This document shows, piece by piece, positions 42,661-47,044 of a DNA stretch of 64,000 bases. Location: UHGV virus genome UHGV-1558314, one strand, 5' to 3'. Position 1 is the first letter of the stretch; each line of letters starts with the position of its first letter. Source of the DNA: a virus. A model generated the notes under the pieces. The model saw only the letters and a list, made by a program, of their open reading frames with translations, was not told the DNA's origin and did no database searches. The position numbers and the translations under genes are program-made.

Positions 42661-42763
42661 TTGTTGTCAATTTGCACAATTGTTGTTAACAAAATGCATT
42701 ACATTGACAAAAAAATAAAGGCTCAGTTTGTATAACTGAGCCTCTTGAAATGACACGAACTTA

Positions 42764-43822
42764 TTACTGCTTCAAGCCTGTGAACAGTTCATACTTGAAT
42801 GCAGGCCCTGCTGTGTAAGCCTCAAAGTAGAAGTCACCAATATTGATGCTTGCAATAGCGTCATCGACAGCTTTCTTGTAGCCTACACGTTCAATTGTCT
42901 GCTTATCGCATTTACGCCAATATGTGCTGTGCATCATAAGCGTGGGTGATGCAGCATAGTCTACTGCAAGCTGTTGTTTTGCAGTGTCAATGTGATGTTC
43001 ATAGATGTGCACATCATTGCCAGTCCAAATGAACTCTCTTGCCGCACAGTTAGTCAATGTTGCAACAATATGTGTAAGCAATGCATATGATGCGATATTG
43101 ATGGGCACACCAAGACACATGTCACAACTACGCTGAGTAAGCGCACAGTCAAGCCACATGCTTGGTACTTGAGCAGAATCAAGGCATTCTGCAGAACAAT
43201 CATGCACAAGCATGCTATCATTAGCAATCTGAATTCGTTCTTCAAGAGTCATTGGCTGACAATTGAACTGAAACAGCATATGACATGGCGGCAATGCCAT
43301 CTGAGACATTTGTGCAGGATTCCATGCAGACACGACTTTGTAGCGGCCAGTTGGATTGATGACAATGTCTTTAATGCAAGTTGCAAGTTGGTCATATCCA
43401 CTGTCATTGAAGTTGCGCCACTGATACCCATAGATAGGTCCGCAATCACCATACTCAGGCTTGCTGAATTTTGTGTTATGCAGTTCTGTGCACCAAGTTT
43501 CAAAGTCGACATCTTCACCTGGATGCAGTTTACGCCAATGACGATATGCATCCTGATGCCAGAACTTTGTAATACCAAGCGTGTCAAGCGTTTTTACATT
43601 TGTATCACCTGACATAAACCACAGAAGTTCTCCAATGACACCCTTGACAAACATTCTCTTGGATGTCAACAGTGGAAAGCCTTTACGCAAATCAAATCGC
43701 ATTGATTCTACAAACAATGACTTTGTGCGAGGCATGTTTTCACGAGCAGGCTCCTTAAATCTGCCATGTTCAATAACATTGTTAAGTACTCTCAAGTACT
43801 CAGTGTCGTGTTTGATATTCAT
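42764..43822 (-). CDS. thyA: Thymidylate synthase (ThyA family, canonical dUMP-type)
   Basis: ELLWFMSGDTN, LPPCHMLFQF (catalytic Cys), GVPINIASYALL with Asn at the base-specifying position. Confidence 0.75.
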   Translation of the reverse strand: MNIKHDTEYLRVLNNVIEHGRFKEPARENMPRTKSLFVESMRFDLRKGFPLLTSKRMFVKGVIGELLWFMSGDTNVKTLDTLGITKFWHQDAYRHWRKLHPGEDVDFETWCTELHNTKFSKPEYGDCGPIYGYQWRNFNDSGYDQLATCIKDIVINPTGRYKVVSAWNPAQMSQMALPPCHMLFQFNCQPMTLEERIQIANDSMLVHDCSAECLDSAQVPSMWLDCALTQRSCDMCLGVPINIASYALLTHIVATLTNCAAREFIWTGNDVHIYEHHIDTAKQQLAVDYAASPTLMMHSTYWRKCDKQTIERVGYKKAVDDAIASINIGDFYFEAYTAGPAFKYELFTGLKQ

Positions 43823-44444
43823 GAATGGGATGTTTATGAGTGTCTAATGATATGTCTGAGAATTCATATGCATACTTTGATATTGCAACACCATTTGCAT
43901 CTTCAAATGCTTCTGTAAAGTTGCTATCAATCCATCGTTTGACAGACTTAACTCCGCCTAAATGACATGCTGCAAGCAATGACGCTTCGGTTATTGTAAA
44001 TGTGTTATCATTGTATGTCGCTTTACGCCCAATTGCGTCATAACAACCGTAGTGCTGCAGCAATTCTTGTTGACGTTCAAGTAGCATATGCTGCACCGCA
44101 ATCTGCTTTGTAGAATCTTTAGCAATTTCTTGCAGTGAACAAGTCAATCCTTTGTATCGTACCAAGTCATCATGAGCAATCTTTGTTAGCTGCCATCGAC
44201 CTGTTGCGCCAAATCGATTTGTGATATGCCAACGATTGCGAGATTCAAGATAGCCCAGCTTATCTAAGTATTCTGCAAAGCTGCAAGTTTCTGGTTCAGT
44301 GACGTCTAACAAGACGTGCACATTTGACAAATTTGCGACTGGCGCATATGTGACATGTTTTGTTGCAGTGCAATCACATAATGTCGGCCATGCAATGATA
44401 AAAGCAACACCAATTTTGATGAGCGATTCACATAATCTTATCAT
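43800..44444 (-). CDS. Lytic transglycosylase (SLT-domain)-like protein with N-terminal hydrophobic segment; candidate endolysin
   Basis: YLESRNRW...GATGRWQL resembles SLT ES...GAxGLMQ; N-terminal SLIKIGVAFIIAWPTL may be a membrane anchor. Track start is TTG; ATG 44442-44444 used. Confidence 0.35.
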   Translation of the reverse strand: MIRLCESLIKIGVAFIIAWPTLCDCTATKHVTYAPVANLSNVHVLLDVTEPETCSFAEYLDKLGYLESRNRWHITNRFGATGRWQLTKIAHDDLVRYKGLTCSLQEIAKDSTKQIAVQHMLLERQQELLQHYGCYDAIGRKATYNDNTFTITEASLLAACHLGGVKSVKRWIDSNFTEAFEDANGVAISKYAYEFSDISLDTHKHPIHEYQTRH

Positions 44445-44488
44445 TTGTTTGAAATTAGTGAAGAGCACTTGCAGGCAGCTCAATCTCC

Positions 44489-44504
44489 TGACAGTACACT
44501 GTCA
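44489..44504. promoter_or_regulatory. Perfect inverted repeat TGACAGT-AC-ACTGTCA
   Basis: Between helicase stop (44510) and SLT-like gene start. Confidence 0.3.
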
Positions 44505-44509
44505 TGCAA

Positions 44510-46387
44510 TCAAAAGCCTGCAAAGAAATCAGCATCAGCAGCATCTTGCTGCGATGTTGACTCTTGTTCAATCACAAATCGACTGTGCAACTTTTGATTA
44601 TGTTTTATGTATGGCATAATGCGCCGGATTGATTCATCAATGACAAACGTTTCACACCAGTCATTTGCATGTCGAATGCCTCGACCAACTGACTGTACGA
44701 AGCTTTGATAGCACTTATTGCGATACCAGCTTTCGTGATTTGCAGCTTTTGTTTTGACTACGATATCACCAAGTGATTGCCAAGGTAATTTTGCAACAAT
44801 TTGACATCTACAACGATTGTCTGGTAAGTCAACGCCTTCAGTAATGCTAAAGCCTACAAGTACGTAGTTAGTGCCATCAGCAAGCATTGCAAGTTTGTTT
44901 TGTTTATCTTCAGCATTGACATATGTCAGCATTCTGCGTTTGTGCTTGCTGTTATTGATGATATAGTTTGCAATGTCTCGTGTTGATGTGTGTATGATAC
45001 AGTTGCAGTCATGCGTGTCAAGAATGCTGTCAATCTTCTCAACAAGTCGAGGCATATTTGCCGCTTTATTCTTGTAGCTCAATGACAACGCAGGCCTGCA
45101 CAGTACAATGGGGGATTTGCTAAAATCCCAATCAGGCTCCATGTAGAATGCTACATAGTTTTTGATGCCATTGAGTGCAGCAAATGTGTCGATGTCACCA
45201 ATTGTCGCTGACATCCACAATTGTGCGTGTGTAGCATCACTGTGATGCACCAGCGTATTTGCAAGAAGCTCATCATTGACACATTTGAATTGCAAGCTGT
45301 TTGTTGCAGCGTCAAGTACTACAAGCATGTCACCAGGTGATTGTTCAGTTGCATCAAGCATTGTAATGATTGAATATGACAACGTATCACAGCTGGCAAC
45401 AAAGCGAATGAACGCTTTCTCAAATTGACCAAGTATTTTACCAGAATCCTGAAGTTCACTTAGCTTGTCATATGCAGTATGCAAAAAGTCTACAAGTTCT
45501 GACAACTGCTGTGCAAGCACTCTTGCTTCTGCTCGCATTGTTGCAATGTCATATTGTGTTGTTGCAAGCTTAATGATTGCTTTGACTTGTGCAAACACAT
45601 TATTGCGAAGTTCTACATATTTATTCTGATTTTCAAGAGTCATGATACCTGCAATCAGTGACTCGGCCTTTGTGCAATTCTGAATGAATCGAGGACCAAT
45701 TGACGTGTAAAGAAAGCCTGACAAAATGTCATCAATCTTATGGCACTCATCGAATATTGTCAATTCACGAGGCCCAAATAAGTTTTTGACGCAATTGACT
45801 TGTATCAACCAGTATGCATAATTGAGCACAGTGCAATTTGCTGCTGCAGCCTTTTGACGAGTCTGCAAATATGCGCATTTAGGTCCGCATGGCAATGCAA
45901 GAGCTTTCTTTGATGACAGCCCGTCTTGCTGGCATTTGCCCATACTGAATGGCAGCCCATTGACATGACAAATGTAGTTGTCTCGACCTTTGAGCATTAC
46001 ACAACTTCTGAATGCTGAAGTAGTTGTATCTGCTTTAGCATTGTTGTCGTACAAATATTGCTGAATGAACTTGTCGTACTGGTCTTGCAGCAGTTTATCA
46101 GAAGTCAGTACATACGACTTAAAGAACGTTGCACAAAACATTGCAACCACAGATTTCCCCGTTCCAGTCGCGCCCTGCAACACAACATTTTGCCCATTTG
46201 CAATGCAACGAATGATGTCAATAATTAGTTGACGTTGAGTTGCGTCAAAACGTGCTTGGTCCCATTTGCATGTCTTTGATTGTGCAAGATATGCTGAGAA
46301 TTTGTCGATATGTGCTACAATGAGCTCATCAAGCTCTTGCTGAGACTGTTCTTCTGTCTTATGTTCTGTTGGTGTTAGTCTACCCAT
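44510..46387 (-). CDS. DinG/XPD-family Fe-S helicase
   Basis: Walker A GATGTGKS, DECH box FDECHKID, four-Cys cluster between them, C-terminal VGRGIRHANDWCETFVIDE. Confidence 0.65.
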   Translation of the reverse strand: MGRLTPTEHKTEEQSQQELDELIVAHIDKFSAYLAQSKTCKWDQARFDATQRQLIIDIIRCIANGQNVVLQGATGTGKSVVAMFCATFFKSYVLTSDKLLQDQYDKFIQQYLYDNNAKADTTTSAFRSCVMLKGRDNYICHVNGLPFSMGKCQQDGLSSKKALALPCGPKCAYLQTRQKAAAANCTVLNYAYWLIQVNCVKNLFGPRELTIFDECHKIDDILSGFLYTSIGPRFIQNCTKAESLIAGIMTLENQNKYVELRNNVFAQVKAIIKLATTQYDIATMRAEARVLAQQLSELVDFLHTAYDKLSELQDSGKILGQFEKAFIRFVASCDTLSYSIITMLDATEQSPGDMLVVLDAATNSLQFKCVNDELLANTLVHHSDATHAQLWMSATIGDIDTFAALNGIKNYVAFYMEPDWDFSKSPIVLCRPALSLSYKNKAANMPRLVEKIDSILDTHDCNCIIHTSTRDIANYIINNSKHKRRMLTYVNAEDKQNKLAMLADGTNYVLVGFSITEGVDLPDNRCRCQIVAKLPWQSLGDIVVKTKAANHESWYRNKCYQSFVQSVGRGIRHANDWCETFVIDESIRRIMPYIKHNQKLHSRFVIEQESTSQQDAADADFFAGF

Positions 46388-46388
46388 T

Positions 46389-46422
46389 CTAAATGAGATT
46401 TAGATTATGTTCGAATATATGA
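46389..46422 (-). promoter_or_regulatory. Conserved 5' leader hairpin plus shared 16-mer upstream of helicase gene
   Basis: Inverted repeat TCTAAAT-gag-ATTTAGA abuts the ATG, identical to the leader of 49413..53339; tatgttcgaatatatg also occurs at 29648-29663. Confidence 0.4.
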
Positions 46423-46631
46423 GAACATATATTATTTGTAAAGATATAATACTACAAACAGCACACATTTGCACTTTGACATAACTGATTGAGTATCAAT
46501 CAATTATGAGTTTATAAAAGTTTTTCAAAAGTAGGGTGTTGTTGTTTGAGTAGAGTGTTGTTAATGCTGTCAGCTGTCTTGTTAGCATTATCGATTGCTT
46601 GCAAACTATCAGCCGTCATAGAACATCACAA

Positions 46632-46665
46632 AAGCAAGCAGACTACAATTGCAGTCTGCTTGCTT
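46632..46665 (-). terminator. Palindromic terminator-like element, copy 1
   Basis: aagcaagcagact acaattgc agtctgcttgctt; 27/28 identical to element at 62977-63004. Confidence 0.45.
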
Positions 46666-46687: not shown

Positions 46688-47044
46688 TTATTTGCACATA
46701 AACAATGCAGCAAACCAATTCACTGGCTTGTCAATAAGCTGCTTCCACATAGTCCAATTGTACATGCCATGTGCAAACATTGTAAGAGCAAACAGCAGCA
46801 TACACATTGATACAAGCCAATCAGCAAATGGCATATTGCCCCATCGAATGTACTCGAAAATGCCAACTTTAACAAGCTGAGCAAACAAAATGAGCATTAC
46901 AGCCATTGCAAGTCGCGTCCAGACTACATATTGCTGAGTCTTATCTACAAACTTTGCAATCAATGCTGGCACAAAGTACATAATGTATGCAAACAGCAGC
47001 AAGCAAAAGCCTGCATACAGCAGATTAGAAATAAAAGCTCCCAT
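46688..47044 (-). CDS. Multi-pass membrane protein (118 aa)
   Basis: Four hydrophobic segments. Confidence 0.4.
   Translation of the reverse strand: MGAFISNLLYAGFCLLLFAYIMYFVPALIAKFVDKTQQYVVWTRLAMAVMLILFAQLVKVGIFEYIRWGNMPFADWLVSMCMLLFALTMFAHGMYNWTMWKQLIDKPVNWFAALFMCK

Follow-up and report, generated by a model that had tools for sequence, protein, structure and literature searches.

A predicted exported GH23-like muralytic enzyme encoded between the helicase and thymidylate synthase genes of a large phage

The window (the whole stretch of viral DNA analysed, which covers 64 kb of a genome no smaller than 175 kb) carries a real phage gene of a family that has a GH23-like fold with a conserved catalytic motif and lies outside the models of the curated databases. 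We consider its product, with modest confidence, to be a small exported peptidoglycan-cleaving enzyme, most likely a holin-independent secreted endolysin or accessory lysin. The phage is a large T4-like/jumbo-related myovirus, and its translation signals and relatives point to a Bacteroidota host (Flavobacteriia-type). As phage lysis enzymes go, this one is of an ordinary kind, and general concepts are unchanged by it, but the finding offers a putative assignment, exported and GH23-like murein-cleaving, for a family of at least 565 sequence clusters, and points to a possible use, in large Flavobacteriia-type phages, of holin-independent, Sec-exported lysins encoded outside lysis cassettes. This is of use for annotation and for the mining of lysins active on fish pathogens of the Bacteroidota (Tenacibaculum, Flavobacterium).

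The first-pass annotation had placed an SLT-like candidate endolysin at 43800-44504 and gave no strand; the open reading frame is real, lies on the minus strand and extends in full over 43800-44483 in the ORF list (Table 1). Alternative starts are GTG 44468, the equivalent of which is the gene callers' choice in relatives, and TTG 44483. The leader before the ATG is A-rich and G-free and resembles the leaders of other genes in the window, only 2 of 55 of which have an SD-like motif. Synonymous and non-synonymous codon differences from three close variants stand at 11:5, 9:6 and 12:10. The gene shares its last 23 nt with the beginning of thyA (ATG 43822), and two orthologues (P0001, 98% identical, and P0002, 50% identical) keep the order helicase, muralytic gene, thyA. 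A DNA-level search of the phage collection returned thyA fragments only.

Table 1. Positions of the muralytic gene, its predicted parts and the surrounding features in the window.
Feature	Position	Strand	Remarks
Putative exported GH23-like muralytic enzyme gene	43800..44444	-	214 aa from ATG 44444; stop codon 43800-43802
Predicted lysozyme-like (GH23/SLT-type) catalytic domain	43854..44288	-	residues about 53-197 (ATG numbering)
Predicted catalytic glutamate codon	44244..44246	-	E67 (ATG numbering), E75 (GTG numbering)
Predicted N-terminal export signal	44364..44444	-	residues 1-27 (ATG numbering)
Conserved 27-nt block AGGAGATTGAGCTGCCTGCAAGTGCTC	44463..44489	-	about 20 nt upstream of ATG 44444
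Perfect inverted repeat TGACAGT-AC-ACTGTCA	44489-44504		in the 65-nt spacer from helicase stop to ATG 44444
Helicase	44510-46387	-	stop at 44510-44512
thyA	42764-43822	-	Pfam/PHROG assignment
Inferred transcription unit (helicase, muralytic gene, thyA)	42717..46664	-	terminator scan, sequence reading, Pfam/PHROG
Terminator-like hairpin closing the preceding unit	46633-46664
Strong intrinsic terminator after thyA	42717-42745		terminator scan

Predicted catalytic domain and its relatives

The ES...GAxGRWQ pattern, present in the encoded protein as LGYLESRNRWHITNRFGATGRWQL, had been taken as the sign of a lytic transglycosylase domain, and it is not a product of chance: its Glu, Gly and Gln are invariant in 129 aligned sequences, in which the Ser of the Glu-Ser motif is at least 90% conserved. 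A profile built from the protein and two relatives retrieved 565 cluster representatives at E<=1e-3. The lysozyme-like alpha-helical fold expected of a GH23/SLT domain was found, with the motifs L-E67-S68, G82-R-W-Q85, Q114, T152-E-A-S, A-C-H161-L-G-G, D182-A-N-G and Y191 (ATG numbering). The predicted catalytic Glu lies at the C-terminal end of a helix (61-76) in the AF2 model, and is paired by hhalign with Glu115 of the phiKZ endolysin gp144 (I-E115-S), the catalytic residue of that enzyme and the equivalent of Slt70 Glu478 (PMC5406664). Motif II appears in the family as G-[KR]-[YW]-Q, with G and Q invariant, where the canonical form is G-L-M-Q, and A-A-H-L-x-G stands where motif III, A-Y-N-x-G, is expected (cf. 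L-A-H-F-F-G in gp144).

The fold and the catalytic motif of the proposed SLT-like domain were borne out, but the Pfam threshold for SLT was not reached: the window protein has no Pfam match at E<=0.1, and so falls short of the gathering thresholds of PF01464 (SLT) and PF06737 (Transglycosylas). Among 71 relatives, weak matches to these two models, below threshold, occur in only 13 and 18, with best E values of 2.9e-5 and 1.4e-5, respectively. Since no curated-family threshold was reached by the window protein in Pfam, PHROGs or NCBIfam, the enzymatic assignment depends on remote homology and predicted structure. Searches of PDB sequences, with either the protein or the three-sequence profile, gave CopA metal-binding domains only, which we regard as chance matches.

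From the family 1 lytic transglycosylases (GH23 SLT; Slt70, MltE and MltC of E. coli, Slt of P. aeruginosa, Cj0843c of C. jejuni) the protein differs in many respects. Identity is 12-17%, their motif III is AYNxG instead of AAHLxG, and the window protein has an extra beta-hairpin (residues 149-158), a C-terminal D-G-N-G with an invariant Asp, and an N-terminal signal/transmembrane segment instead of an outer-membrane lipobox. This Asp, numbered D182 from the ATG and D190 from the GTG, is situated in the C-terminal hairpin. In GH23 hydrolases such as goose lysozyme and the Ralstonia chitinase an Asp acts as the base, and the Asp found here could do the same, which could mean lysozyme-type hydrolase chemistry instead of transglycosylase chemistry. 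The lytic transglycosylase gp144 (PDB 3BKH) differs in lacking an export signal and in carrying a peptidoglycan-binding domain at its N-terminus, its Tyr197 pairs with an Ala in the window protein, and its gene sits in a holin-spanin lysis cassette (PMC12894885).

True homologues are BPT24_220 of the Tenacibaculum jumbo phage pT24 and ORF304+305 of PTm1 (tblastn E 3e-9 and 5e-11; 28-31% identity), for which a Foldseek E value of 2e-8 provides further support. They share the layout of signal, linker and domain, although in PTm1 an in-frame stop splits the signal-plus-linker part from the domain, and these phages and the one studied here are also related through their helicases. The genomic neighbourhoods of their copies differ, that of PTm1 being near the capsid gene. 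Both homologues are uncharacterised and annotated merely as "peptidoglycan-binding" or "tail lysozyme".

The latter name raises the question of a virion-associated tail or baseplate lysozyme for entry. As many as 53 of the 71 relatives match phrog_27932, "baseplate hub subunit and tail lysozyme" (the window protein itself has no match to it), the same name is used in RefSeq for the Tenacibaculum phage homologues, and a baseplate gene lies 7 kb away. However, phrog_27932 owes its own name to annotation transfer, and the protein, at 214 aa, consists of an export signal helix, a linker and one domain, and lacks the OB-fold/beta-helix hub domains within which the lysozyme domain of a T4 gp5-like protein is embedded. 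Tails are assembled in the cytoplasm and not from Sec-exported proteins, and the gene belongs to the helicase-thyA unit. A role in the tail is most unlikely. The public labels "baseplate hub subunit and tail lysozyme" and "peptidoglycan-binding protein LysM" are probably both wrong. Relatives also match a PHROG annotated as endolysin.

Predicted export signal and proposed role

The hydrophobic N-terminal stretch (IGVAFIIAWPTLC) noticed earlier is real, with a best 19-residue Kyte-Doolittle mean of 1.64 and a segment of comparable kind in 93 of 129 relatives. It has the layout of a Sec signal, composed of an n-region MIRLCESLIK (net +1: R, K, E), an h-region of 12 residues, IGVAFIIAWPTL, and a c-region CDCTA; by the -3/-1 rule, taken as a rule of thumb, signal peptidase I could cut at A27|T28. 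The AF2 model has a single helix over residues 4-30 (GTG numbering), followed by a low-confidence linker, and the charge distribution predicts an N-in/C-out topology. The conserved L-C-x-C was dismissed as a lipoprotein motif, because position -1 of the lipobox would then be filled by Leu or Asp.

The first-pass annotation had read this stretch as a possible signal-anchor-release (SAR) segment, i.e., a transmembrane helix of weak hydrophobicity that is not cleaved and keeps the inactive enzyme at the membrane until depolarisation by a pinholin releases it. The hydrophobicity, with E and K in the best window, would indeed be marginal for a stable anchor, the model contains one helix, and the two Cys at the outer end of the segment (LCDC / LCTC) together with two in the domain, all conserved in the close subfamily, recall the thiol switch that P1 Lyz possesses. 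P1 Lyz and phage 21 R are likewise muralytic enzymes with a hydrophobic segment at the N-terminus and are exported independently of holin, but their catalytic fold is GH24 (T4-lysozyme type), unlike the GH23-like fold here. Their SAR segments comprise about 24 uncharged residues and are Gly/Ala-rich, with a small-residue fraction of 0.5-0.6. Measured against these references and the heuristic of some 20 or more uncharged, Gly/Ala/Ser-rich residues in an uncleaved helix, the uncharged core of 13 residues is short and not Gly/Ala-rich, its fraction of small residues being low. Furthermore, a plausible signal-peptidase site follows the core, and no pinholin or holin gene adjoins, the neighbours being the helicase and thyA. 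We consider a SAR endolysin unlikely.

For the secreted lysin that we favour, we infer that the N-terminal Sec-type signal would carry the protein through the cytoplasmic membrane and be cleaved off, leaving a flexible linker of about 25-30 residues and then the GH23/SLT lysozyme-like domain of about 145 residues. This domain would cut the MurNAc-GlcNAc bond of murein, its invariant Glu-Ser glutamate serving as general acid. The enzyme would build up in the periplasm and lysis would ensue late in infection, once the membrane is de-energised. The same logic applies to other secreted endolysins, such as Tgl of the Kayviruses (Staphylococcus phage K-like). This small phage protein combines a signal peptide with a transglycosylase-like domain; its gene stands apart from that of the main endolysin and can be transcribed in the manner of early genes, and the product, once exported through the host's machinery, lyses cells upon permeabilisation of the membrane (PMC7150955). 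Tgl belongs to another branch of the fold (IsaA/SceD-like) and to phages of a Gram-positive host.

The statement that no holin is adjacent is correct; the gene is flanked by a DinG/Rad3-like helicase and thymidylate synthase (Pfam/PHROG assignments), with which it is presumably co-transcribed, and neither holin nor spanins occur beside it in this unit. The nearest small membrane protein (118 aa, 3-4 transmembrane segments, 46688-47044) is encoded one gene further upstream and belongs to the preceding transcription unit. No convincing holin or spanin neighbours were found in the window, in the phage-like contig L008, in pT24 or in PTm1, homologues in other phage contigs are likewise solitary, and no T4-type late promoter (TATAAATA) occurs near the gene. 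As the window represents a part of the genome, a canonical endolysin may lie elsewhere.

Such a setting brings in an accessory wall-remodelling enzyme, captured from the membrane-anchored housekeeping transglycosylases of the host, which would loosen or recycle murein during infection, its gene being expressed alongside those for replication and nucleotide metabolism, and which would leave lysis itself to another enzyme. A Flavobacterium chromosomal homologue adjoins yceG/mltG, dapF and DUF2279, near dnaA, like housekeeping wall enzymes, so that the phage copy could have this function, and the position of the phage gene, flanked by helicase and thyA within a single unit that hairpins delimit, with lysis partners found neither nearby in the window nor in other phage contigs, agrees with it. 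However, the timing of expression is read here from gene order, in a genome that mixes structural with replication genes along one strand. Moreover, a phage that infects diderm bacteria requires some muralytic enzyme, no other was recognised in the 64 kb, and relatives match the endolysin-annotated PHROG. We take remodelling as a rather unlikely alternative to a secreted lysin.

Inverted repeat and conserved leader block

The perfect inverted repeat, for which a role as operator had been suggested, is present exactly as described between the helicase and the muralytic gene, but it does not exceed chance expectation and is not conserved. Perfect 7-bp inverted repeats separated by 0-6 nt occur 115 times in the window, and in 16 cases the spacer is 2 nt. 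The pattern is single-copy: no second copy was found in the window with two mismatches allowed, and 45 of 100 shuffles gave at least one match. An operator or regulatory hairpin controlling the muralytic gene would fit the perfection of the repeat, its intergenic position abutting a conserved 5' block, and its intact state in two of three close variants (L005 and L013). In the third (L003), one arm carries two uncompensated changes despite 97.5% identity across the ORF, while in L004 the last part of the helicase gene takes its place, and as RNA the region folds no better than shuffles do (z = -0.2). Because no U-run follows, the repeat is not an intrinsic terminator either. Regulation through this repeat is very unlikely; the repeat probably arose by chance and probably has no function.

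The 27-nt block itself is better preserved. In L004, the one diverged relative to which the comparison extends beyond near-identical copies, 25 of its 27 nt are identical at an overall DNA identity of 65%, which equals the conservation of the coding motifs best preserved in thyA and the helicase. The block is single-copy in the window, and exact searches of viral and metagenome contigs returned only near-identical copies of the same phage. A composite scheme, in which the family is a distinct GH23-fold clade, widespread in Flavobacteriia as well as in their large phages, whose Glu plus invariant-Asp pair would make it hydrolytic and lysozyme- or chitinase-like, and in which the gene studied here is transcribed early with helicase and thyA but gated in translation by the block, to yield a Sec-exported, holin-free lysin, is in our estimation improbable. 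Folding of the leader RNA gave no significant z-scores against shuffles. The block is a possible 5'-leader element, and its two substitutions fall on facing sides of a small hairpin in which AGGNG would be hidden.

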